From: a virus
Lineage: Duplodnaviria > Caudoviricetes
Direction: 5' to 3' (one strand)
Length of the DNA stretch: 64,000 nucleotides
Virus record (IMG/VR): IMGVR_UViG_3300037454_000334
Location: 1 to 64,000 of that record
The notes under the pieces are model-generated. The model saw nothing but the letters and a program-made list of their open reading frames with translations, was not told where the DNA came from and did not search any database. Every line of letters starts with the position of its first letter. The stretch's first letter is position 1. The position numbers and the translations under genes are program-made. Positions 2,718 through 64,000 of the stretch are shown here, piece by piece.

Positions 2718-3127
2718 ACTTTTGATTCTTCTTGTTCGGTTATTATGATGTCTAAGATACCGCAGGCTTCTGAAAGTCCTGCACGGTCATCTATCAGGAT
2801 GTTGTAGTAAGGTTTGCGGCAACCTTTGCAGACTATCGGGTTTTCGTTCACGTAGTCGATGCGGATGCCGAAGTGCTGGCAATAATGGCGGATGAACGCC
2901 AGTTTCTCATCGCCCTCATTCGACGTGAGCAGTATCATCTTGTGGCCCTGCTCCGAGCATCGGCGCAACAGACTGATGATGCCGCTGTAATCGAAGCCCT
3001 GGTTGTGATAGTCGAAGATGGTATTGTCAAAATCGAAGGCGACAAACAGGGAACCGTGCGCAGCCAGTTCGCTGCGCAACCGCTCCACTTGCATATCCAT
3101 GTTGATGGGAACCCGTATCATTTCCAC
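2714..3127 (-). CDS. HAD-superfamily phosphatase-like protein
   Basis: Motif I FDFDNT and motif IV LIDDRAG; overlaps both neighbours. Confidence 0.75.
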   Translation of the reverse strand: MEMIRVPINMDMQVERLRSELAAHGSLFVAFDFDNTIFDYHNQGFDYSGIISLLRRCSEQGHKMILLTSNEGDEKLAFIRHYCQHFGIRIDYVNENPIVCKGCRKPYYNILIDDRAGLSEACGILDIIITEQEESKV

Positions 3128-4659
3128 CTATACTTTATAGAATCCTCAATACTCTTGTCAAGGTTGGCGCGAACCTCGGCCAGCGTGAAGTCACGCAGCA
3201 ACTTGCCGTCCTCGAACACCGTCACAAGACAACCGCCCTGCTCTTCCTCGCGGGTCACACCATCCTTGGCATAGTAGCGTCCATGCTCGTCCTGCTCCAC
3301 GCGGATCAGTCCCTTCAGCGAGTTCTTCGTACCGCTGTCGGTCTTGGGCTGCTTGAAGATGTCGTGTCCCTCACCGTTAATCTGACACCACGTAGCCTTG
3401 ATAGCGAATCCCAGCGAGTCGCGGCTCTTATACTGATATGTGAACGAGCCGAAGCCCAGCACGATGTTCGTGGCGGCAAAACCCTTGGCCTCCAGCCGAC
3501 GGTAAATTTCAGCCTGACGGTCGAGCGTGATAGCATCGCCGTAAATCATACCGATGTGCGGGTCGAGCACCTTGTAGCCGGACTCGTTCACCGTGCCACC
3601 GAACATTTCCCACAGCAGTTCGTAGGTGCCGCGCTTCTCGCAGTCGGGAATCTCGTGGATTTCCTGGAACGACATTTCGTCGTCGTAGTCCTTCTGATCC
3701 CATCCGCAGATAATCTTCACGGGGTCGCCGCTGTCGGGACGGATAACCAGACGCCCGTCGCGGCTCATAATCTCCTGTTTCAGCTGCGGCACGATGTTGG
3801 TGATGACATTCCAGTAGTCCCACGTGTCGCTGACGATAGAGAGGAAACCTTGCGGATAGACCTCGGTCAGCAGTCGGCGGTAGGTGTCGAGTTCAGTGTC
3901 CTTGCCACCAGCGCACATCACCGAGTGTTCCGTTGCAGGGACGGTGGCGGCAATCAACTCCTTGTCAGCGTCGGCATTGTAATATGTCTCCAATGCGGCG
4001 ATGGCGGGCAGCGTCTCTGAGCCGTTGAAAGCCGTCATGTGACCCATGCCGCTCATAATGGCCGCCTCGATGCCAGCCATACCGCGCATTGAGAAGTCGT
4101 GACATAGGAATCCGAGGTCGTCGCCGGCAAAGCCCGTCTTCTGGGCATGTTGCATCAGTGCCTTCTTGGCCATGCGTGCCGACGTTGCCGACGTGCAGGG
4201 GAGCCACAGCGATGCGGAGAACAGCGTCTCCAGATAGTTCGTGAGCCAGAAGAAGTCGGGGTGCGTGTTCTCCACCGTCAGCATCGGACAACGGATGGGA
4301 CATACCACACCCTCGGGCAGCGACTTGATGCGGATAGGCAAGTAGCCCAGGTCGTGCAGTTCGGCAATGTGCTCCGTGCCGACATTGTTCTGCGGACCGA
4401 GGAACGTGTCAACACGGCGCTTGAACTCGCCCACCACTTTCTCCTTCGGCTGCTGGAAGAAGCCTTCGTTGAACTGCTTGATAAGATACTCCTTGACGAG
4501 ATACTGCAGTCCAAAGACCACGGCGCCCTCGTCGCCGCCCTTCATCCAGTGAGCCGAGCGCGGCGTCCAGTTACTGTAAACATACTCCGTCCCTTTCGGG
4601 TACTGGTTGCGGTGGCCTAATTTGTAGCCGTCCGTCAACAAAATAGTCTCTTTGTTCAT
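3118..4659 (-). CDS. nicotinamide phosphoribosyltransferase-like protein (candidate Namat of NARP1)
   Basis: LLTDGYKLGH, HDFSMRG, PATEHSVM, SIVSDTWD, VIRPDSGDP and IYGDAIT motifs of the NAMPT family. Confidence 0.93.
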   Translation of the reverse strand: MNKETILLTDGYKLGHRNQYPKGTEYVYSNWTPRSAHWMKGGDEGAVVFGLQYLVKEYLIKQFNEGFFQQPKEKVVGEFKRRVDTFLGPQNNVGTEHIAELHDLGYLPIRIKSLPEGVVCPIRCPMLTVENTHPDFFWLTNYLETLFSASLWLPCTSATSARMAKKALMQHAQKTGFAGDDLGFLCHDFSMRGMAGIEAAIMSGMGHMTAFNGSETLPAIAALETYYNADADKELIAATVPATEHSVMCAGGKDTELDTYRRLLTEVYPQGFLSIVSDTWDYWNVITNIVPQLKQEIMSRDGRLVIRPDSGDPVKIICGWDQKDYDDEMSFQEIHEIPDCEKRGTYELLWEMFGGTVNESGYKVLDPHIGMIYGDAITLDRQAEIYRRLEAKGFAATNIVLGFGSFTYQYKSRDSLGFAIKATWCQINGEGHDIFKQPKTDSGTKNSLKGLIRVEQDEHGRYYAKDGVTREEEQGGCLVTVFEDGKLLRDFTLAEVRANLDKSIEDSIKYRWK

Positions 4660-35394: not shown

Positions 35395-35426
35395 AAAAAC
35401 CCCCGCATCAGCTCGTGGTGCGGGGG
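35395..35426 (-). terminator. intrinsic terminator
   Basis: cccccgca/tgcggggg stem plus U-run. Confidence 0.75.
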
Positions 35427-35535
35427 CAAAACTAGCATAAATCAAGTCAACTTCTATGAAACCAATTCAGTTTGATTCTTATGTTAGTGAGAGTTGTCAG
35501 GGTTCGTCGTCGGGTTCTTGTTCAGCCGGTTGTTC

Positions 35536-35565
35536 AGCCGGAGCGTTGCCGGCGGTTATTCCCCC
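35536..35565 (-). promoter_or_regulatory. predicted -1 ribosomal frameshift signal
   Basis: GGGGGAA-TAA-CC-GCCGG-N7-CCGGC-T, matching 36563-36592. Confidence 0.75.
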
Positions 35566-36095
35566 ATCAGAGAATCCCATCCACCCTGCTGCGGCTCAGT
35601 CACGTAGAGCAGAGGATACTTCACGGGTTTCAGGTGGAACTCGCAAGTAGCCTGACGGTCAGAGTCTGCGGTGTCACCGGTGTCACCGGCGATGCCACCG
35701 TTGTCAGCCTCGCAGCGACGGTTCGGGTCGTACATAATCAGGCTGTCATCGCCATCCTTCACGATGAAGAACAAGTCGAGGTTGTTCAGCGCACGGCCGG
35801 CCTTCGAGAAGGTCTTGTTCAGAGACTCGATGACAATGGTGATTCCGAGGTCGTAGCCCTTGCGGGGGCCAAGGCTTGAGAAGCTGATCTTCTGGGCCTC
35901 GTTCTTACCCTGAATCTTATAAAGTCCCTTACCGCTGGCGAAGGTCGGCGTGCTGTACACGTTCTCATCTGCGGTCAGGGGAGCGGCCAGGTCAGATTTA
36001 ATACCGACATAGACGTCGGCGCTGATGCCAGCCAGATTCTCCAAGCACTCGTCGGCTTTGAGAATGTTCATCATTGTTGGACAATTCTGTGCCAT
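35556..36095 (-). CDS. probable major tail (tube) protein; predicted -1 frameshift extension to 35497
   Basis: Beta-rich 179 aa downstream of capsid; ends in a GGGGGAATAA frameshift cassette. Confidence 0.55.
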   Translation of the reverse strand: MAQNCPTMMNILKADECLENLAGISADVYVGIKSDLAAPLTADENVYSTPTFASGKGLYKIQGKNEAQKISFSSLGPRKGYDLGITIVIESLNKTFSKAGRALNNLDLFFIVKDGDDSLIMYDPNRRCEADNGGIAGDTGDTADSDRQATCEFHLKPVKYPLLYVTEPQQGGWDSLMGE

Positions 36096-36132
36096 ATTGA
36101 TAAATTTTTGTGTTGGTTACTACTATTAAACG

Positions 36133-36191
36133 AAAAGGGAGGGAGCCCATCGGCGGGCGATATTGCGCTTCGGGGCTCCCCTACCCCCTTT
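36133..36191 (-). terminator. intrinsic terminator after capsid extension
   Basis: gggagccc/gggctccc stem flanked by A/T runs. Confidence 0.7.
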
Positions 36192-36199
36192 GAGAGATT

Positions 36200-36590
36200 C
36201 TAGCCGTCCAGGTCGGTGTCCTCACCGCCGCCCTGACCTACGTCAGCCGTTGGCGTGATAGTCACCAGGATTCCGGCTTCGTTGCCTTCGGCATCGTACA
36301 GCGGATACTTGGTCTCACCGTCGGCTGCTGCCGTTGCGATGATGTAGAACTTGCGTCCTACCCACTCGGCTACCGAGTTCTCCTTCACCTCGACCTCGAT
36401 GAACTCCTGTTCGCCGAAGGTCTTTTTCTCGCCTGTGGTCTCTGCGACGCCAGTGGCGTACTCAGTCTGACCGTCGGCGCTGTATGAAGTGAAGTTGTAC
36501 GTTACCTTTTCGGGTACCTGCGGCTCGGGCTGTGGCTCGGGCTCTGGTGCAGGCGTTTGATTAGCCGGGTCGCCTCCGGCGGTTATTCCC
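36200..36590 (-). CDS. -1 frame C-terminal extension of capsid protein (PE linker plus acidic beta domain)
   Basis: Open frame GITAGGDPANQTPAPEPEPQPEPQ...EDTDLDG* with no ATG of its own; begins at the slippery site. Confidence 0.75.
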
Positions 36591-36592
36591 CC
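36563..36592 (-). promoter_or_regulatory. predicted -1 ribosomal frameshift signal
   Basis: Slippery G-run, stop codon, then 5-bp GC stem with 7-nt loop. Confidence 0.8.
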
Positions 36593-37839
36593 GAGAAAAT
36601 GGCTACGATGGCCATAGGATCACCTGTGGCAACGATGTTGATCGTTGCAGAGGTCTGTCCGTTTGACCACTTCACGAAGTTCTTGCCGGTCTTCGGTGTG
36701 GCGGTCAGTGTCAGGGTTGTGCCCTTGGCTACCTCAGTACCACTTGGGATGGTCTCCTGACCGTTCTTGATAACCACGTCACCGAGGGTAGCGTCGTTGG
36801 CGGTCACGTAAACGGCATCCTTGGTGTAGTCACCAGAGTTGAACGACATCTCGGCAGCACCACCATTGGTCACGAATGCGCGGCCAGTGGGATCAACGAG
36901 CATGAAGCCGAAGATACCCTGGATCTGCATCACGAGGTCCTTGGTGTCGCGAGAGGGCTCGGGAACGACGTTGACGAAGCTGTCGTCAGACTCGTTGTTC
37001 ACACCCAGCACGAGGTTGCCCTCGATGGTTGCGAATGCGAGTGTTCCCTTGTAGTCATCTACGGGGATGAAGGTACGCTTAGAGTGTCCGGGCAGCTTGA
37101 AGTTGCCGTTGTCAAGCCACTGAGCGCCCTGGTGTGAGCGGTGCTTCTGCTCGAAGGCGTCGGCAATGGCGAGAGCGTCCTCACGAACGAGATAGACGTT
37201 CACGTTCTGCTTCTTCAGTGCGGGGCTCCATGAGTTCTCCCACTTCACGTAGTTGTCGTAAGCGGCAGAGTCGCCCTCGCTCTGGGGAGCGTCGAACAGG
37301 CCAGAGGGGATGAGATTCTTGGCAGCCTGGTTGACAGTGCCGTCGTTGATGTCAACCAACATCACGGTGAGCAGACCGTCGAAGAGGTTCATCTCCTCGT
37401 TGTCGCTGGCAGCGTCACCACCGATAATGTTGTTGAAGATGTCCTGAGAGAACAGCTTGGCCTGCTCGGTCATGAACTCCTCGGTCTTCTCAAAGTGCAT
37501 AGCGGCATTGCCGTTGATGCTGATGTTACCTGGCTTCTCCTTGAAGTCATCCTCGTTACAGCGAATGCGGTGAACGCAGATGTTCGCCGTCAGCTTACGA
37601 GAGAAGAGGTAGCCGAGCTTCGACTCCTTGACGTTACCGACTTCCTTCTTGCGGGTCTGACCACCCTTGCCTGCGAAGACAGTCTTGGTCATCTGGTGCT
37701 GTACACCCGTCTCGACCTTGATGCCGAGGCGATCCAACTCGTCCTTCATATAGTATGCAGGACCGAACACGATGTTCGGAGAGAGCTTGTTGGCTACGCT
37801 CTGTACATTCTCCAAACCGATGAATTTTTCGTTTGCCAT
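36583..37839 (-). CDS. probable major capsid protein with C-terminal Ig/InlB-B-repeat-like domain
   Basis: Directly after protease/scaffold; C-terminal GTTLTLTATPKTGKNFVKWSNG. Confidence 0.7.
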   Translation of the reverse strand: MANEKFIGLENVQSVANKLSPNIVFGPAYYMKDELDRLGIKVETGVQHQMTKTVFAGKGGQTRKKEVGNVKESKLGYLFSRKLTANICVHRIRCNEDDFKEKPGNISINGNAAMHFEKTEEFMTEQAKLFSQDIFNNIIGGDAASDNEEMNLFDGLLTVMLVDINDGTVNQAAKNLIPSGLFDAPQSEGDSAAYDNYVKWENSWSPALKKQNVNVYLVREDALAIADAFEQKHRSHQGAQWLDNGNFKLPGHSKRTFIPVDDYKGTLAFATIEGNLVLGVNNESDDSFVNVVPEPSRDTKDLVMQIQGIFGFMLVDPTGRAFVTNGGAAEMSFNSGDYTKDAVYVTANDATLGDVVIKNGQETIPSGTEVAKGTTLTLTATPKTGKNFVKWSNGQTSATINIVATGDPMAIVAIFSGE

Positions 37840-37895
37840 AGTTGTTAAAAATGTGTTGGTGAATAATGATGTTATTTAAAAAGTTTTTGTGTTGG

Positions 37896-39668
37896 TTACT
37901 TACCGTGCTCCTCGTTCCACTTCTTCTCCAGCTCGCGGTTCTTATCATAAGAGAGAGCGGGGTCATAGACGTACTGGTTCACTACCACTTGTGGAGCTTC
38001 TGCACCGCCGCCGTTATTCTTTGGGGCAGCACCAGCCTGTGCGCCTTGACCGGGGTCGTTCTGGAGCTCAGTGAGCTGGGCGTTCAGGTCTGTAATCTGC
38101 TGGTCGCGCTCGGCGATGGTGTTCTCGGCGGTCGTCAGGGACTCCTTTGCACCGTTCACGTCGGCCTGCAACTGCTCAATCTGAGCCTTCTGTCCCTCGA
38201 TGTCATGCTGCAGGTTGCCGATGGTCTCCTCCTTGGCGGTGATGTCCTGCTCCTGATCGGCGATCTTGGCATTCAGATCCTCGATGGCCTTGCTGTGCTC
38301 AGCGTTCAGGTCGTCGATGGCCTTGCTGTGCTCAGCGTTCAGGTCGTCGATGGCCTTCTGGTGCTCGGCGTTCAGGTTCTCCACTGCCTGTGCGTTCTCA
38401 GTCTTGATGGTCAAGATCTGAGCGTTCAGGTTGTCCTTCTCTGCGGTCAGGCTCTCTACCAATGCCAGTGCATCGGCTTTCTCCTTCTGCAAAGCCTCGA
38501 TGTTTGTCTGAAGAGTGTCGAGCAGTGAGGTGTTCATGTAAACACCGTCTGCATCCACCTTCTCAAACTTGCCGTCAGCAGCTCCTGCCAACTGTGCAAT
38601 AATCTGATAATTCTCTGTCATAATACTGTTATTTGTTGGTGAAATAATGTTGTTCTGTTTTGCGAGATTGACGCCACGGACTTTTGCCTTCTTGGTATCA
38701 ATCTCTGGCAGTTTGCCGAGTTTGCGGCCTGCTGTGCGCTCGATGGGCTTTTCCACGCCGTCTGCCACTGCAAAGGCACGGGATACGAGATCGCCGAGCA
38801 GCATCTGACCGTCGCAGAGGATGCCCATCACATCTTTGGCGTTGAACATCTTGCCTTTCAGGTGCTCGTCCACGTCGGCATTCGGGAAAGCAGCCTTCAT
38901 GTCTGCACGGAACTCCTCGCCGAGTTTCTTCAGCTCCTCGATGAGCAGCGTAGCGTCATCGTCTTCGGCGATATCGCGCATCTCCTTATTCTTATCAACG
39001 CTCTCGGGGTCGTAATACTCGCGGTAGGTCTCGCCCGTGTACTGGTTCTTCTCGCCGTTCTTCTGCGTGAAGAAGCTGGCCATCACGCCGACGCAGCCGA
39101 GCTGATCCATCAGGTTCACAACATACACCTCGTCGCAGAGCGAAGCCTTGTACTCGCCAGCCGATGCGCACAGGCCGTCAATAAGATCATAGACGCGCTG
39201 GCCACGGGCATGGGCATAGTCAATACCCATCTGGAAATCGTTCTTTGCCCAAGCACTACCGCCAGGGGTGTTGGTAATGAAGATGTGTGCGCGGCAATAC
39301 TTATTGTCGGCAGCCTTCATCATCCAGTCGCGGATTTCCTTTGAGCCGTAAGAACAAGCACCACCGTTGCGTGTAATAGGTCCGTCGATTGGCATGATGT
39401 TTACGAATGGTACCTGCAGCTGCTTCAGGTAGTCGATACCAGCCCAAGAGTCGTAGGTCGGCAGCACATCACCGTCCTGTGTGACCTCATACTCACGGAA
39501 GATGTCGGCGCCAGCCATGCTCATCGCCATCGGTCTGCGCTTCTCGCGGTCAATGCCGAGCATCGTATGGTTCTGGCTGTTATACATCACCGTGGGCAGG
39601 ATGCCATGCACGAACGATGGCAGTATCATCCATTCCTTGTTGGTGTAGATTTCTAAAAGTCCGTTCAT
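37896..39668 (-). CDS. S49 family prohead protease fused to coiled-coil scaffold
   Basis: IDGPITR, NTPGG, GLCASAG, GCVGV; long heptad C-terminus. Confidence 0.85.
   Translation of the reverse strand: MNGLLEIYTNKEWMILPSFVHGILPTVMYNSQNHTMLGIDREKRRPMAMSMAGADIFREYEVTQDGDVLPTYDSWAGIDYLKQLQVPFVNIMPIDGPITRNGGACSYGSKEIRDWMMKAADNKYCRAHIFITNTPGGSAWAKNDFQMGIDYAHARGQRVYDLIDGLCASAGEYKASLCDEVYVVNLMDQLGCVGVMASFFTQKNGEKNQYTGETYREYYDPESVDKNKEMRDIAEDDDATLLIEELKKLGEEFRADMKAAFPNADVDEHLKGKMFNAKDVMGILCDGQMLLGDLVSRAFAVADGVEKPIERTAGRKLGKLPEIDTKKAKVRGVNLAKQNNIISPTNNSIMTENYQIIAQLAGAADGKFEKVDADGVYMNTSLLDTLQTNIEALQKEKADALALVESLTAEKDNLNAQILTIKTENAQAVENLNAEHQKAIDDLNAEHSKAIDDLNAEHSKAIEDLNAKIADQEQDITAKEETIGNLQHDIEGQKAQIEQLQADVNGAKESLTTAENTIAERDQQITDLNAQLTELQNDPGQGAQAGAAPKNNGGGAEAPQVVVNQYVYDPALSYDKNRELEKKWNEEHGK
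38281..38379. repeat. three 33-bp tandem repeats (DLNAEHSKAID) in scaffold
   Basis: Direct inspection. Confidence 0.85.

Positions 39669-55907: not shown

Positions 55908-55908
<1 letters not shown>
55869..55908. repeat. intergenic 7-bp tandem repeat (atttacg) x5
   Basis: Direct inspection. Confidence 0.8.
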
Positions 55909-57821
<1,913 letters not shown>

Positions 57822-57914: not shown

Positions 57915-60900
57915 TTATGTACCCATGTAGCTCCAGTACCATTTGTAGTCGTAGTACACAAGTTCTGCGCGGTCGTAGTCATCGAGAGGCACCTGTGTCT
58001 CACTCTGGTAATCGCCGTCAACGACTATTCTGTCAGAACCCTGCACCTTGATGTAGATACCGTCGTCCAGGTTCTTGACGGTGATGACCTTCCCGTTGTG
58101 CGGATTATTGGGCAGGTAGATGTCACGTGTCCCCTTTCCAGCAATCACATAGTCATCATATTCATCCAGGGTGACATTGCCGGCACTGTCGGATATCTTC
58201 CTGATGGCACGACCCGCATAGAAGGGCGTCCATCCTTCACGCTTGTGCCACCGCTCCAGCTGCACGCCGGACGAGCCGTGGATGATGCGGAAGCCGTCCT
58301 GCGAGCCTCTTGAATAGAGGCCCTTGGTGTCGAGGATGGTGACGTTGGTCTCGCTCGAGCTCTGCGATTCCGAGCCGGAGTTGATCTTCACAAAAGCTCC
58401 GCCAACGCCGTTCGTCTGGAAGTCGTTGGCATAAACCTTGCCTGTCTTTCCGTCGACGGCGAAATTCGGGATGAAGGCGGAGGCAGAGCTCATATCGTTC
58501 GGGTTGAACCTCTGATAGCTGGAGGAGTCGTATCCGTTCACCTTGCCGTACTGCGATATCATCCAGTCACCATTAATGATGAACGAACCAAGATAGGCCG
58601 AGTCGGCAAACGTCACCTTCGTCATGAAATACTCGAAGACGGAGGTCATCTGCTCCCAGCCTGCTGCCGTCTGTGTGTCAGGCTCTGTCGTGTTTGCGCC
58701 AGAGGACTTGACATTCATCCAGAAGCTCGCTCCGTGCTTGACATAATAGCCGACAGTGGTGGTGTTCTCAATGGCTACGTAAGGATTTGACCCAGGCCCG
58801 CAGTCAACACCCCACACGCCGAGGTAGCGGTACCAGAGGCCTGTCTTGCCTTGGGATCCGGTGTCGCCTGTCAGGCGGACATACGACCAATCTGTATAGA
58901 TTCCGGTTGACGGGTTGTAAGTATGGGTACGCTGCCATACGAACGGCTTGTATACCGACGGCAACGGAGCTACAGATACCCAGTCGGACTCCCGGCAGTC
59001 TGCAGGCATTGCGCCGTCCTGTGCCGTCTTGTAGGCACTGAGGGCATACTGTTTCTCCTCGTATACCCCTTGTGGGCCCTGTGGTCCTGGCACGGTACTG
59101 GCATCGCCGGGGTCGCCCTTTGACCCGTCCCTGACGACCGGTATGGTCTCACGGTCGAGAATGGCGCCGTTTTTGAACAGCGCGAGGTACACGTTATCGT
59201 CGGAGACGAGGGCCTGAAGTTGGTTGGCGGGATTCAAGGCCGACCAGTCTTTCTCTGACGAATCCGACGCCGGCATCTTGCTCGTGCTGTACCGGACGGT
59301 CACGCCAAGCGACGACAGGTTAGCGCTGGTGGCGTCCTTGCTGTCGCTGCTGGAGCCGTCGATCTTCACCACCTTCAGCGAGAGGACCGGCGGGTTGTTG
59401 AGCGTGTTGTCATCGTTCCTCTTACACGGCAGCGCCGAGTGCGACGGCGACAGCTGGTAGAGGGCGTCCATCTTCGCCGCCGTGACGGTGAACACGGCCT
59501 TGTAAACGACGTCGTTGTATGAATAGCTGATCTCGATCTCATAGGAGTCGTTCATCGTCCTGCCTGCGAAGAATCCCCACGACAGCTTCTTCCCTTTCCC
59601 GGAAGCGGAGGCCGTGAACGTTGCCACTGGAGTCTGGCCTGTTGTGACGGGGCCTCCGGTGACGCTGATGCCTTTCCCCGTGCTCGGGTTGACGGCAGCG
59701 GCGCTGATGTCCACCTCCTTCGACCCGTCGTACAGGCTGACGACGGTCTCCACGGTGCGCGCCAGCGTCACCTTGCCGTCGCTGCTGGTCAGGACGGAGT
59801 CCATCTCGTTCGAGATGTCGAGCTTGGAGACGTTCTTCCCGTTCTCACCGTCCTTGATGACAGGCACCGTCTCCCGGTCGAGCAGCACGCCGGAGGAGTT
59901 GAACATGGCGATGAAGACGCTTGGGACGGAGCTGATGGCCTGATAGCTGTTGTCGGCAGGCCATGGGGATCCGCCTGATGCCGATGTCGGCATGCCGGAC
60001 GTGCTGTAGCGCACGATGACGCCCAGGTCCGTCAGCTTGTCGGCTATGGCGTCCAGCTCCTCGGTGCTCGCACCGTCGACCTTCACCACCTTCAGCGAGA
60101 GTGCCGGCGGGTCGTTGAGCGTGTTGTCTGCCTTCCTGGTGCATGGCAGCGCCGAGAGGGAGGGCGACAGCTGGTAGATGGGCTGGCCCTTCGACGGGGC
60201 GATGGTTATCACGGAAGTGTAGACCGTCCCCGTGTCTGGGTCCGGGTACCTGTAGTTGACCTTGACCTCCAGTGCGTTTTTCATGGAGAAGTTCTTGGTG
60301 ATCTTGAACGTCAGCTTCAAGCCCTTCCCTTCCTGCTCTTTTGGATATGGCGTCAGGCCGCCATCTGTCCACAGCTTGTTATCCTTGAGGGTTATCTCCG
60401 TCGTTCCATCAAACAGGCGGGCTATGGTTGTTATTATGCGTTCCTCCGTCACCAGCCCATTGGCGTCCGTCTGTACCATGTCCATCTCGTTCGACAGGTC
60501 GAGGCGGATGTTGCTGTCGCCGTAGTGGCTCCAGAGAGCCATCTTGCCCGAGTACTTCTCCCACTGGCGCTGGCCCTGGGAGGCGCCGGTCGTTGCCGGG
60601 GCAGCCTTGGTGCGCTTGGAAACCCACTCGTAGGGGTATTCGCGGCTGACGCCTGCAGGGTCGTCGGTACACTCGACGTTGCCAGAGAGCGACCCTCCGC
60701 TGGCCAGCGGCAGGTATTCGTCGTCGAGGTAGGTGCGGCCCCTGGAGTCCGTGCGGCTGTCCGCGCTGGCGACGATGGCCGGGGCGACGCTGGTCTTGGT
60801 GCGGATGTAGACGTACTCCATGCCGTCGCCGTCCTGCCCATTCTTCCCCCACTTGCTCCATATCCTCGGAGCGGAGAAGTCGCCCCAGGTGTGGCCGCCG

Positions 60901-63900
60901 GTGAAGCTGCCGGCACCCGTCGTGGCGGAGCTCTTGCGCTCCGACACCCATTCGAACGGGTTGGCGAGGCTGACGCCGGAGGGGTTGTCGGTCCAGCCGC
61001 TCGGAACGTAGTCGTCCACCGTCCTGTCCTGCGGGTTGGCGGGCGAGCCAGGGTTGTCTTCGGTGCTCGTCAGCTTGTAGACGTACTCCACGCCAGCGCC
61101 GTCCTCGCCCTTCGTGCCGCGAACGGCGGAGACGTGGTAGTGGTCCTCATAGGGGTAGTCCTTGCCGTTGTACCTGTAGCGCTCCGTGTCGGCGTCGTCC
61201 TTCGGCGTGGAGTAGAGCGTTCTCGTCCAGTTCCACTGGTAGGGCAGTGCCTCGCTCGGGGCGCGCTCGTACTTCTCGTCACCCCAGACCTGGACGTCGT
61301 CGAAGCCACTGGTGGGGATGACGCCGTAGGTGTTCTTGTCGTTGATGTCGGATGGCACGAGGATGCTGCTGCTGACGGGCGTCTGGCTCGATGACAGGGC
61401 GTAGAGCTCTATCACGCCGGCGATGCCGCGCGAGGCGTCGCCGATGCAGACGGGCTTGGTGGCGTACTCGGTGCCCATGCCGTCGACCCTCTGCTCAAAG
61501 TTCCACAGGTACCTGTCGGCGCTGCCCTCCTGGAAAGCGGGCCGCGAGGTCTTCCACAGCGTGGTGTTGATGTTCGGCTTCGACGCGGTGGCTGCCGCCA
61601 GCCTCCAGTTCTCGGCGGCCGGGTCGGAGGCGTTGTACCAGCGGATGCCGCACTGGTCGTAGGTCGTGCCGCCGAAGGCCGTGGCGAAGTCGGCGCTGCT
61701 GCGCAGGCAGTAGTACTCCTCCTGTCCGATCTGGCCGTCCTGGCCGATGCGCGAGCAGCGGTAGTTCACCAGGTCCGGCACGATCTTCGGCGTGCCGTCG
61801 TCGTTCCAGGCCTCGTACTTGACGACGGTCTTCTCCCACACGTTCCATCCCTGCATCTGGCCGACGCCGCCGTTGGCGGTGGCCGCCTCGCCGAAGGTGT
61901 TGTACCACTTCGCCTGCGTGCCGGCACGGTCCCAGCCGGAGTCGCCGGGCTTGGGGTAGGTGTCCGTCGAGGCGTTGACGACCAGCTCGGTGTTGCTCGT
62001 GGCGAGGTAGTAGGAGTCGATCTCCTCGATGCCGTCGCCGTCGATGCCCCAGCGGCTGACGCTGTACTCTCGCGTCGGCTCGCGGTCGGGGTCGTTGGGG
62101 TCGTCGTAGTATATCGTCGTGCGCGTCCACAGGTACTTGCCCATGCTCACGCCGGTGGCGGCGATGGTGGCCTTCCAGTCCGCAGAGTCGTCCGCCGGGT
62201 GGTTCAGGCCGTCCAGCGAGGCGGCGTAGTGGATCTTGCTGTCGACGATCTCCGTACCCTTGGAAACCTCCCTGAGCCACAGGTCGTTGTCCTTGGACGG
62301 CTCGCTGTAGGTATAGAGCCTTATCTTATAGACCGTCTGCCCGCCGACCTTTCCCGTGGCGTAGTAGTGGTCGGTGCCCGTGACGACCTCGTCGTCGGCG
62401 GTGTGGACGGAGTAGGTGAAGTTGCCCTCTCCGTACTCTATGTCCTCGACCTGCCACTGCTGGTATTCCGTGCCGTTGGCCGTCTCCCAGATGTAGTTGT
62501 CGAGGACCTGGCAGAGCCAGATGGAGCCCTTCCACGACACGCGGTCGTACCAATGGTAGCGCGTGTTCGGCGTCCACTCGCTCCTCTCCAGGGGGACGGG
62601 GAACTCATAGCCGGAATCGTCGAGGAGCTTGAATGCCTTCGAGCGGACGAGGAACTGCTCGGGGGACATCTCCCAGACTAGGCAGTTCTCGAACGAGAAG
62701 GTGTGGATGCCACGGTAGCCCTTGATAGCGGGCGGGTGGTTATCTGAGCCGGAGGTATAGAGACTGACGACATTCATGCGCGACTCGTCCGTGCGGTTTC
62801 CGATACATACAATGGTGTCGCCGGCCACGGGGATGCCGCTGCCGCCGTCGCGGAACGAGCGCTTCTCGTTGTCGGTGTAGGCGTGCCGGCGTCCCTGCGA
62901 GTCGGTGTAGTTCCATCCCTCGTAGGGCAGGTCGACAAAGTCGTATGCGTGCCCGTCCTCAAGCTTCTCCGAGCCAACATTAGTCACCAGTCTCCAGTAG
63001 TAGGCGGTCTCAAACGGACCCTCGATTGTTGTGTAGTCCGGCATTGGGGTGGCTGGGTCATCATTAAAGTGGTCCTCTTTCCAGTTGTAAGTGTTCTTAC
63101 GCTTGTTCTGCGAGGAAATAGCCTTGTTGAAGGTCTGGCACCTGGGCTGGTCGCCGACCTTCCACCAGTTGCGTGTGGCGGTGGTGCCGTTGTCGGCGAG
63201 AAGGTAACATCGGAAGTGGTGCACGCGGCTCCACTCGTCGTCGGACAGCTGTCGGCGGATGCGTTTGCGGGCAGCGTAGTTGAACACGCGCCCAAGGAAG
63301 GCGAAGCGCTTCAGCAGGAACGGCACCTTCATCACGGTGTAGCCAAGCGCCTCGTCGTTCTCGTCCATGTACTCCACGCGGTAGATGACGGAGCCTGCGG
63401 GCGAGTAGTGGTTGTTGCCGCCCACAAAGGTCTCCTCACGAATCTCCAGTTCCATGAAGGTGGCCTTCTTGCGCACCTTCAGGAAGTCGATTTCGAGCTC
63501 CGAGCCGCCCTCGCCGTTGTCGTTGGTCAGACGGAAGCCCGAGCCGTCGAGCAGACCGCTCTGGTAGTTATGCGAGCGCAGGTCGTCGATGTAGCCTTTG
63601 ATGGCATCGAGCGTACCCGTCACGTTCAGGTTGTGGATGGTCGCCTGTGCGGCCTCCAGGAAATTGAACACGGCATGGTTGATGGTCTTGATGAAGTCGA
63701 CCGTCCCGTCGGCCAGCAGCTTCCACCACGTGCCGTCGCCACCGGCATCGTAGGCCTCGTCGGAGTTCAGGCGGCCCGTGTCGATAGGTTCCTCCCACTC
63801 ACGGAAGGTATAGCCACTCTCGACGATATGGCCCGAGATGATGCCCTGCAGCCACACATAGTAATAATCCTCGTTGCCCACCTGCTCGCCGGCCTCGTTC

Positions 63901-64000
63901 ATGCCGTAGATGTCGAGTTCCTCGTCAGGGAAGCTGACGATGGCCTCGGTGCCCACCTCCTCGCTGCGGGGGATGGCCACACAGACGTACTTGTGCGTCT
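57915..64000 (-). CDS. giant tail/host-specificity protein (>2021 aa, 5' end outside window)
   Basis: Frame open to window edge; LEIDFLKVRKKATF motif, GxDGxGxEYVY repeats, two tandem SNEMD...ETVPV domains. Confidence 0.85.
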   Translation of the reverse strand, partial: THKYVCVAIPRSEEVGTEAIVSFPDEELDIYGMNEAGEQVGNEDYYYVWLQGIISGHIVESGYTFREWEEPIDTGRLNSDEAYDAGGDGTWWKLLADGTVDFIKTINHAVFNFLEAAQATIHNLNVTGTLDAIKGYIDDLRSHNYQSGLLDGSGFRLTNDNGEGGSELEIDFLKVRKKATFMELEIREETFVGGNNHYSPAGSVIYRVEYMDENDEALGYTVMKVPFLLKRFAFLGRVFNYAARKRIRRQLSDDEWSRVHHFRCYLLADNGTTATRNWWKVGDQPRCQTFNKAISSQNKRKNTYNWKEDHFNDDPATPMPDYTTIEGPFETAYYWRLVTNVGSEKLEDGHAYDFVDLPYEGWNYTDSQGRRHAYTDNEKRSFRDGGSGIPVAGDTIVCIGNRTDESRMNVVSLYTSGSDNHPPAIKGYRGIHTFSFENCLVWEMSPEQFLVRSKAFKLLDDSGYEFPVPLERSEWTPNTRYHWYDRVSWKGSIWLCQVLDNYIWETANGTEYQQWQVEDIEYGEGNFTYSVHTADDEVVTGTDHYYATGKVGGQTVYKIRLYTYSEPSKDNDLWLREVSKGTEIVDSKIHYAASLDGLNHPADDSADWKATIAATGVSMGKYLWTRTTIYYDDPNDPDREPTREYSVSRWGIDGDGIEEIDSYYLATSNTELVVNASTDTYPKPGDSGWDRAGTQAKWYNTFGEAATANGGVGQMQGWNVWEKTVVKYEAWNDDGTPKIVPDLVNYRCSRIGQDGQIGQEEYYCLRSSADFATAFGGTTYDQCGIRWYNASDPAAENWRLAAATASKPNINTTLWKTSRPAFQEGSADRYLWNFEQRVDGMGTEYATKPVCIGDASRGIAGVIELYALSSSQTPVSSSILVPSDINDKNTYGVIPTSGFDDVQVWGDEKYERAPSEALPYQWNWTRTLYSTPKDDADTERYRYNGKDYPYEDHYHVSAVRGTKGEDGAGVEYVYKLTSTEDNPGSPANPQDRTVDDYVPSGWTDNPSGVSLANPFEWVSERKSSATTGAGSFTGGHTWGDFSAPRIWSKWGKNGQDGDGMEYVYIRTKTSVAPAIVASADSRTDSRGRTYLDDEYLPLASGGSLSGNVECTDDPAGVSREYPYEWVSKRTKAAPATTGASQGQRQWEKYSGKMALWSHYGDSNIRLDLSNEMDMVQTDANGLVTEERIITTIARLFDGTTEITLKDNKLWTDGGLTPYPKEQEGKGLKLTFKITKNFSMKNALEVKVNYRYPDPDTGTVYTSVITIAPSKGQPIYQLSPSLSALPCTRKADNTLNDPPALSLKVVKVDGASTEELDAIADKLTDLGVIVRYSTSGMPTSASGGSPWPADNSYQAISSVPSVFIAMFNSSGVLLDRETVPVIKDGENGKNVSKLDISNEMDSVLTSSDGKVTLARTVETVVSLYDGSKEVDISAAAVNPSTGKGISVTGGPVTTGQTPVATFTASASGKGKKLSWGFFAGRTMNDSYEIEISYSYNDVVYKAVFTVTAAKMDALYQLSPSHSALPCKRNDDNTLNNPPVLSLKVVKIDGSSSDSKDATSANLSSLGVTVRYSTSKMPASDSSEKDWSALNPANQLQALVSDDNVYLALFKNGAILDRETIPVVRDGSKGDPGDASTVPGPQGPQGVYEEKQYALSAYKTAQDGAMPADCRESDWVSVAPLPSVYKPFVWQRTHTYNPSTGIYTDWSYVRLTGDTGSQGKTGLWYRYLGVWGVDCGPGSNPYVAIENTTTVGYYVKHGASFWMNVKSSGANTTEPDTQTAAGWEQMTSVFEYFMTKVTFADSAYLGSFIINGDWMISQYGKVNGYDSSSYQRFNPNDMSSASAFIPNFAVDGKTGKVYANDFQTNGVGGAFVKINSGSESQSSSETNVTILDTKGLYSRGSQDGFRIIHGSSGVQLERWHKREGWTPFYAGRAIRKISDSAGNVTLDEYDDYVIAGKGTRDIYLPNNPHNGKVITVKNLDDGIYIKVQGSDRIVVDGDYQSETQVPLDDYDRAELVYYDYKWYWSYMGT

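Follow-up and report, generated by a model that had tools for sequence, protein, structure and literature searches.

A candidate -1 frameshifting cassette shared by the capsid and tail-tube genes of an uncultured phage from bovine gut or rumen metagenomes

Two adjacent structural genes ending in the same cassette

The subject of this study is a short cassette that ends two adjacent genes, those of the major capsid protein and the tail-tube protein, in the virus record IMGVR_UViG_3300037454_000334 (Caudoviricetes; IMG/VR), and that may direct -1 ribosomal frameshifting. The stretch analysed comprises positions 1 to 64,000 of this record and is called the window below; coordinates are those of the window, and all cassette features lie on the minus strand. 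The parent record measures 106,914 bp and is estimated to be 65% complete, and the sequencing runs that contain this virus sequence are bovine gut or rumen metagenomes. Neither blastn nor tblastn against the phages in GenBank gave a match, and no relative was found among 50,697 deposited phage genomes.

The first of the two genes (36583-37839) encodes a protein of 418 residues. Its AlphaFold model, with a predicted local distance difference test score (pLDDT) of 83.6, gave 338 Foldseek matches in PDB at E <= 1e-3, the best at 2e-9, and all listed matches are HK97-type capsid proteins or encapsulins, including HK97, T5, DT57C and phi29. Judged by this model, the protein adopts the HK97 capsid fold; about residues 340-418, at the C-terminus, form a Flg_new_2 / InlB B-repeat domain (Flg_new_2 in Pfam, E 1.7e-6). 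The tail-tube gene (35556-36095) follows directly and encodes 179 residues (pLDDT of the AlphaFold model, 82.3). Foldseek alone was weak for this protein (E 6.5e-3). In VIA-align, the top 50 matches of the model are nearly all tail-tube, Hcp or injection-system tube proteins (Z 8.7-6.2), the best being those of phage 80alpha (Z 8.7), the SPP1 tail tube (Z 8.6) and lambda gpV (Z 8.0). The alignments extend over about 120 of 160 residues, with about 123 residues at 3.3-3.4 A for the leading matches, and the modelled protein has a tail-tube/Hcp fold. Searches of Pfam and PHROGs assigned no family to the core of the capsid protein, to the tail-tube protein or to the extension described below, and searches of PDB by sequence gave no match for the capsid protein, the tail-tube protein or the extension. 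The labels 'capsid' and 'tail tube', which an earlier note on this DNA had given to the two genes, are nevertheless backed by both structure models.

The capsid gene ends with the codons TCG GGG GAA TAA, followed by CC, the hairpin sequence GCCGG-AGGCGAC-CCGGC and a T. Similarly, the tail-tube gene ends with ATG GGG GAA TAA, followed by CC, GCCGG-CAACGCT-CCGGC and a T. The layout is the same on both genes and consists of the heptamer G_GGG_GAA, the stop codon, 2 nucleotides (nt) and a GC hairpin of 5 bp, the loop of which has 7 nt. It can be read directly in the sequence that the G run, stop, spacer and stem are identical on the two genes while the loops differ, just as the earlier note had described. 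On the capsid gene, the proposed slip site occupies 36586-36592, the 0-frame stop lies right behind it at 36583-36585, and the hairpin, which starts 5 nt past the heptamer, occupies 36564-36580. On the tail-tube gene, the proposed slip site, placed by sequence and gene phase, is found at 35559-35565 and the hairpin, again 5 nt past the heptamer, at 35537-35553.

A 17-mer, GGGGGAATAACCGCCGG, is common to both gene ends and has these 2 sites only in the window, and the full cassette pattern has only these 2 sites in the whole 106,914-bp record. The hairpin pattern GCCGG-N7-CCGGC was found twice where 0.07 occurrences were expected, and 0 of 100 shuffles contained two or more. The string GGGGGAA is not rare in itself (5 found, 5.9 expected), and the two cassette copies are the only occurrences that stand in the gene phase G_GGG_GAA. 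Two further matches to the pattern, in the unrelated viral contigs L069 and L071, have no gene context and were set aside as chance.

Past both genes the -1 frame is open, and the +1 frame is closed within 7 codons. Translation of the -1 frame after the capsid gene gives 130 residues up to a stop at 36200-36202, in agreement with the earlier figures of about 130 residues and an end near 36200. In this capsid extension (36200-36592), the junction is followed by a linker of Pro, Glu and Gln, then by a domain at about 36248-36511 that measures about 88 residues, and finally by an acidic end. An open -1 frame had also been proposed for the tail-tube gene and is present (35497-35565), with a length of 22 residues (GG + ITAGNAPAEQPAEQEPDDEP) rather than the 21 first given, up to a stop at 35497-35499. 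The translated tail extension is acidic and Pro-rich and has no folded domain; its peptide resembles a linker, not a beta strand. A terminator-like hairpin with a T run can be read in the sequence past each extension, at 36133-36190 for the capsid gene and at 35395-35427 for the tail-tube gene.

The two genes also have a sequence in common near their starts. A 16-mer, GTAACCAACACAAAAA, is found as an exact copy at 37884-37899 (-), about 45 nt before the capsid start, and at 36105-36120 (-), 10 nt before the tail-tube start. It has no other copy in the window, even when 2 mismatches are allowed (0.01 expected). This 16-mer may serve the two most abundant virion genes as a common leader or late-promoter element. 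Strings similar to it, AACCAACACAA, are present past the tail-tube gene in the related loci L032 and L040.

Co-occurrence of cassette and extension in related loci

The capsid comparison covered 44 related loci from IMG/VR and metagenomes. Sixteen of these loci end in NNG-GGG-GAA-stop-2 nt-hairpin, and in 15 of the 16 the -1 open reading frame (ORF) runs for at least 101 codons, the last being open for 60 codons up to the contig end. The other 28 loci have no G run or cassette. Their -1 ORFs are of 2-35 codons (one of 83), and a conserved terminator-like element stands directly behind the capsid stop, whereas in the window the terminator lies behind the capsid extension. The signal and the extension are thus conserved together, in 16 of 16 cassette loci against 0 of the 28 cassette-less capsid loci. 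In addition, five capsid genes were picked for unusual ..GE ends, and all five carry the cassette. One of them, L060, has the cassette with an unrelated extension of 91 residues, and the cassette therefore carries at least two unrelated extensions. About 55 of the best 120 capsid homologues end in GE, and no in-frame fused capsid was found among these 120 (lengths 249-436 aa; 229-732 aa searched).

The tail-tube loci show the same association. Six distinct tail-tube cassette copies were recovered, all with an open -1 extension; five of the six extensions are acidic, Pro/Ser/Glu-rich and 22-29 residues long, and the sixth is cut by the contig end. Nothing comparable to the extension was found in about 27 cassette-less tail-tube relatives. 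Two of the cassette-less relatives end in GGT GAG or GGT GAA followed by TAA, without a G run. Because these ends carry no extension, it is the G run that matters rather than the peptide ..GE. Conservation in related phages had been named beforehand as a check on the earlier note, and the cassette and the open -1 extension do occur together in capsid and tail loci alike.

Behind the capsid unit, nearly all relatives, including L001, L020, L030 and L035, have a terminator-like element (AAGGGG..AGGGAG.. loop with ATATCGCCC ..CTCCCTCCC TTT). The element and its loop sequence are kept despite capsid identities down to about 47%.

Conservation and covariation of the signal

The signal was compared over 22 distinct cassettes, and the pairing of the stem was tallied over 19 distinct copies. 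Invariant in the 22 cassettes are GGGGGAA, the T of the stop codon and A.CAA past the stem; the four inner stem pairs are also invariant, one copy excepted. The stop codon has a fixed place directly after the heptamer and may be TAA, TAG or TGA. The codon before GGG is TCG, GCG, GTG, TTG or ATG (encoding S, A, V, L or M) and is always NNG. Every GGGGGAAT-stop among roughly 60 loci is followed by the hairpin, and the stem begins exactly 5 nt past the heptamer in every copy.

In all 19 copies the stem pairs fully (100%). Its closing pair is G-C (13 copies), U-A (5) or C-G (1), and in L074 the fourth pair is A-U in place of G-C; the stem thus keeps its pairing through three compensatory variants. 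The same changes recode residues (A to S or P; A to D or G; G to S; P to L), which argues that the RNA pairing is conserved and not the peptide. RNAalifold predicts exactly this stem and nothing else.

Codon use points in the same direction. In the capsid gene, with 37 Gly codons, and in the tail-tube gene, with 17, GGG is used once only, namely in the cassette. GAA is the minor Glu codon in the capsid gene (3 of 25), and in the tail-tube gene only one of 9 Glu codons is GAA. CAA accounts for 7% of Gln codons in seven window genes, yet is fixed past the stem. Since the invariant codons of the cassette are rare ones, selection at the nucleotide level is indicated.

A second stem that would turn the hairpin into a pseudoknot is speculation. 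Loop bases 2-5 could pair with bases +9 to +12 past the stem in two capsid cassette types, as GGCG/CGCC in one and GAUG/CAUC in the other, which amounts to two double compensatory changes. In the window, the loop bases would be 36571-36574 (GGCG) and the candidate 3' arm 36552-36555 (CGCC). Such a pseudoknot is at odds with the TCCGG family, the CCCGG copy and most of the tail copies.

Exchange of the cassette together with its cargo

A capsid tree was made from the N-terminal 335 residues (36 rows). The presence and absence of the cassette on this tree need 8 changes, of which the starred branches force at least 7, and several sister pairs differ in cassette presence. The loci L001 and L030, for example, are identical through ..ATC TTC; L001 then continues with TCG GGG GAA TAG and the module, and L030 with GCC GAG GAG TAG and the terminator. 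The module measures 314-422 nt and lies between the last codons of the gene and the terminator, and slip site, stop, hairpin, linker and cargo move jointly. Because presence and absence change at least 7 times on the capsid tree, the cassette and its extension behave like a mobile module. The earlier proposal of a portable recoding signal gains from these changes, and also from the co-occurrence of cassette and extension (16 capsid, 6 tail), the two unrelated cargoes and the covariation of the stem.

A module that is so clearly exchanged among divergent capsid genes might involve no recoding at all. The cassette would then be a recombination joint or scar for the swapping of modules, and the extensions would be either silent cargo or remnants in decay. 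The hairpin, being palindromic and GC-rich, could act as a hot spot for recombination, and the tail copies hold only a linker-like remnant. However, silent sequence would decay, yet the distinct capsid extensions recovered are all open for 91-139 codons, with the domain still recognisable (E down to 1e-62). The stem covaries instead of being simply conserved, and the phase NNG GGG GAA stop persists even where the preceding amino acid or the stop codon differs. A scar of this kind is therefore held to be improbable, and -1 frameshifting is the preferred reading of the exchanged cassette.

The domain carried by the capsid extension

Capsid extensions begin with a junction (GG I/M x A/S/P G), which is followed by the Pro/Glu/Gln linker of variable length and the domain of about 88 residues. 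This domain matches 136 cluster representatives, 44 of them at E <= 1e-10. The matched proteins range from 84 to 4275 aa, and the domain is mostly at their extreme C-terminus. A crAss001-type auxiliary capsid protein (crAss_AuxCP, PF25650, E 4.7e-39) carries it in frame behind a P/E linker, and it is also in frame on a distant homologue of the present capsid family (hhalign E 1.5e-4, probability 51%). Because of these two occurrences, the sequence comparison identifies the domain as a capsid-surface (display) module of Bacteroidota phage capsid proteins. No match of the domain was found in Pfam, including its immunoglobulin (Ig) family, or by sequence in PDB. The idea that the extension duplicates the Flg_new_2 domain of the capsid protein itself was rejected (hhalign probability 0.1%). 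The other cargo, that of L060 (2754-3029, +), is a low-complexity stretch rich in Gly, Asp and Thr, followed by a segment of about 45 aa rich in Tyr and Thr, and has no Pfam match.

Four giant proteins without a Pfam family (P0137, P0141, P0144 and P0149; 2451-4275 aa) end in the same domain of about 88 residues. The members of the giant-protein clusters are named hypothetical proteins and come from metagenome-assembled genomes of Prevotella sp., on contigs of 100-200 kb. As these giant proteins share the C-terminal extension domain and are named Prevotella sp., the host of the phage is probably Prevotella (Bacteroidota).

The domain could also be translated separately from the capsid protein, either by termination and reinitiation at an AUG or AUA that overlaps the stop (A-UGA / A-UAA) or from an internal start such as the GTG at 36388. 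In the TGA variants (L060-L062, L005, L023 and L028), the -1 frame indeed reads ATG across the stop (AATGA), where gene callers place an overlapping, separate gene of 89-116 aa. G-rich runs are also known to act like a Shine-Dalgarno (SD) sequence in E. coli (PMC4066793). In the TAA and TAG variants, however, the triplet at the stop is ATA, and the separate-gene annotation can be attributed to the ATG that AATGA gives as a by-product. Among 17 distinct capsid cassettes, 9 lack any ATG, GTG or TTG in the stretch from the nearest upstream -1-frame stop to the domain, and L034 has none anywhere in its -1 frame. An SD sequence is absent, by eye, upstream of both the capsid and the tail-tube gene, which is in line with the Bacteroidota host inferred above. 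A separately made product would start with a long flexible linker tethering nothing, whereas the domain is otherwise a C-terminal appendage, and a free acidic tail peptide of 22 residues would make little sense.

Independent translation of 36200-36388 had been named in advance as an observation that would tell against frameshifting. It is unlikely, because the GTG at 36388 would start translation midway through the domain and lacks conservation, shifting its position or disappearing among relatives. Taken together, separate translation is rated as very improbable. In other loci, gene callers place a -1 ORF overlapping the capsid end (P0123); this and the separate small genes at the cassette are likely mis-annotations in public protein sets.

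Programmed -1 frameshifting as the best explanation

The cassette is best explained as a site of programmed -1 ribosomal frameshifting at the 3' ends of two late genes, to which a probability of about 0.75 is given. The arrangement resembles that of a frameshift site in several respects. A structure stands at a spacer of 5 nt, within the usual range of about 5-9 nt, and an open, conserved -1 ORF overlaps the end of the 0-frame gene and lacks a start of its own.

In the proposed mechanism, a ribosome on the capsid or tail-tube mRNA would arrive at G_GGG_GAA while the 5-bp GC hairpin, 5 nt downstream, sits at the mRNA entrance. The Gly-tRNA would move from GGG to the GGG one base back with perfect re-pairing, and the Glu-tRNA would move from GAA to GGA, re-pairing with one G-U in the middle. 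The base before GGG is always G, as expected if the five-G run is what lets the Gly-tRNA move from GGG to GGG. Ribosomes that do not slip would terminate at the next codon, giving a short protein that ends in ..GE, and those that slip would continue in the -1 frame. The capsid product would thereby gain the Pro/Glu linker and the domain of about 88 residues, and the tail-tube product only the acidic, Pro-rich tail of 22 residues. The outcome would be a fixed minority of extended subunits in both head and tail.

The slip itself, its efficiency and the exact residue at the junction (G or E) are what we infer. A tandem slip would give the junction ..SGE-I.., and a slip of the Gly-tRNA by itself, with the A site not yet filled, would give ..SGG-I.. 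The junction peptide ..SGG-ITAG.. that had been predicted for mass spectrometry would hold in the latter case only; after a tandem slip, the peptide to expect would be ..SGE-ITAG..

The same fusion, ..SGG-ITAG.., would be produced by transcriptional slippage, in which RNA polymerase lengthens the G5 run by one G in some transcripts. The conserved element does contain a homopolymer run, and one extra G opens exactly the -1 frame. Productive transcriptional slippage in bacteria usually takes place on runs of 9 or more A or T, and the run of 5 G is far below this length. Slippage would also leave the invariant AA, the adjacent fixed stop and the covarying hairpin at 5 nt unexplained. RNA data were available as assembled (Logan) contigs. 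One RNA-library contig, over 36554-36807, shows an unedited G5 across the capsid junction, with no inserted base, and a second covers part of the capsid extension; such contigs drop minor species and may be carried-over DNA, and they are compatible with a minor edited species. Transcriptional slippage is accordingly rated as quite unlikely beside ribosomal frameshifting.

Several points, including these limits of the RNA contigs, weigh against frameshifting. G_GGG_GAA is not a canonical X_XXY_YYZ heptamer, as was recognized from the outset: the A-site GAA can pair on GGA only with a G-U at the middle position. In E. coli, a G_GG.G tetramer gave no true -1 shifting, and the signal was ascribed to SD-like initiation (PMC4066793). 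The stem is short, and its energy is modest (-8.6 to -10.4 kcal/mol); for the capsid hairpin, the values are -8.8 to -10.2 kcal/mol. The folds of the 81-nt windows do not differ significantly from those of shuffled sequences (z 0.29 and -0.57), and in the tail copy the minimum-energy 81-nt fold does not use the stem. Support for the hairpin thus comes from the relatives and not from energy. The suggestion of a selected RNA structure is borne out by the covariation of the stem and finds no help in the fold energies. Many cassettes are also nearly identical, since the module is exchanged by recombination, and part of the conservation thus reflects shared recent ancestry. Finally, there is no domain in the tail extension, which could be a remnant without function. 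The earlier note had both head and tail subunits decorated by extensions; this is supported for the head, and is weaker for the tail because an acidic, Pro-rich tail without a folded domain is all that would be added there.

Neighbouring genes of the window

The gene upstream of the capsid gene (37896-39668, minus strand) encodes 590 aa and is a probable prohead protease fused to a coiled-coil scaffold. Its matches in Pfam and PHROGs are to coiled coils only, and its orthologue in locus L061 has a weak Peptidase_S49 match; the protease part was otherwise recognized by eye. The coiled coil and the weak Peptidase_S49 match in the orthologue both fit a protease-scaffold. The gene after the tail-tube gene (492 aa) has no Pfam or PHROGs family.

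A gene for a collagen-like tail fibre (55908-57821, -), about 20 kb away, matches many PHROGs of tail fibres (E down to 5e-54). It adjoins an ORF at 57915-63980 (-) that encodes at least 2021 aa and runs off the window. The window also contains a nicotinamide phosphoribosyltransferase gene (3118-4659, -; phrog_448, E 3e-200), an auxiliary gene of the phage for the salvage of nicotinamide adenine dinucleotide (NAD). The 64-kb window contains no tRNA gene, and hence no shifty tRNA encoded by the phage was found in it.

Relation to known systems and significance

Frameshift-added extensions on both head and tail proteins are already known. C-terminal domains are added in this way to capsid or tail proteins in gene 10 of T3 and T7 and in phages A2, A118, A500 and PSA (PMC5009743), and gp17.1* of SPP1 is the frameshift-extended form of the tail-tube protein (PMC6316719, PMC8718954). 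As proposed here, the SPP1 shift takes place at the end of the tail-tube gene, beside the stop, and yields a C-terminally extended minority, the ratio of gp17.1 to gp17.1* being 3:1. SPP1 differs in that the shift is +1, on CCC at CCC_UAA, and adds an FN3 (fibronectin type III) domain of 87 residues; the present shift would be -1, on G_GGG_GAA with a hairpin, and would add 22 residues and no domain (PMC6316719, PMC8718954). The tail-tube fold of SPP1 is itself one of those matched by the 179-aa protein, at Z 8.6.

In Lactobacillus phage A2, the tail protein is recoded as well as the head protein. Similarly, both the major capsid and the major tail protein are recoded in the Listeria phages PSA, A118 and A500 (PMC5009743). 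In all four phages, as proposed here, the major head and tail genes are recoded near their 3' ends to give minor extended forms. The two genes of those phages, however, use different signals (+1 or -1; pseudoknot or stop) (PMC5009743), whereas one and the same cassette stands on both genes here and is mobile across the phage lineage. Gene 10 of T7 and T3 (10A/10B) also has a -1 shift near the end of the capsid gene that gives a minor longer capsid protein, and the T3 extension is Ig-like (PMC5009743). It differs in its slip site, its enterobacterial host and the family of its extension, and its signal is not shared with a tail gene.

The cargo invites comparison with the promiscuous Ig-like domains that Fraser et al. 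(2006), as cited in PMC5009743, described on phage structural proteins, some of them frameshift-added. According to that account, these are also small domains that move among structural proteins, either in frame or behind a frameshift site. The present domain, compared by sequence only, differs in having no Pfam Ig match. The review takes the in-frame or out-of-frame landing of Ig-like domains as chance (PMC5009743); in the present lineage, the putative recoding signal travels with its cargo. Because the signal is linked to the cargo and re-used on two genes, sub-stoichiometric display would seem to be selected rather than an out-of-frame accident.

The cassette has a heptamer, a short spacer and a downstream structure in common with the -1 sites of dnaX and of IS3/IS911 (A_AAA_AAG with a downstream hairpin or pseudoknot; PMC4066793). 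In contrast to these, its heptamer is G-rich, with a non-canonical second half, its stimulator is a minimal 5-bp stem, and its host is probably Prevotella. What is new is that one identical cassette stands on both genes, that signal and cargo are linked as a mobile unit that was repeatedly gained or lost, that the proposed slip site is non-canonical, and that the setting is an uncultured lineage of Bacteroidota phages. The frameshift signals of Bacteroidota have, to our knowledge, been little studied. Frameshift decoration signals have so far been studied in a few phages of Firmicutes and enterobacteria, and the present lineage, from the rumen, adds a compact candidate signal of 29 nt.

If the reading is confirmed, a non-canonical slip site would join the known repertoire. 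A simple annotation rule would also become available for long forms of capsid proteins that stay hidden in viromes of the gut and rumen, where gene callers now miss the capsid extension or call a separate small gene. In addition, the cassette would provide a small natural part for setting protein ratios in Bacteroidota.

A broader proposal, put forward tentatively and at somewhat less than even odds, is that the cassette is a self-contained plug-in recoding module. It would consist of the slip site, the adjacent stop and a minimal hairpin (perhaps a pseudoknot in capsid copies), would move with its cargo and would function on any strongly expressed structural gene when placed at the 3' end. 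By this means, the Prevotella phages of the rumen would present exchangeable surface domains on a set proportion of their subunits. If this is true, the ribosomes of Bacteroidota shift efficiently at a type of site where -1 shifting has not been demonstrated in E. coli, and the unit of horizontal exchange among these phages is not the domain alone but the recoding signal as well.

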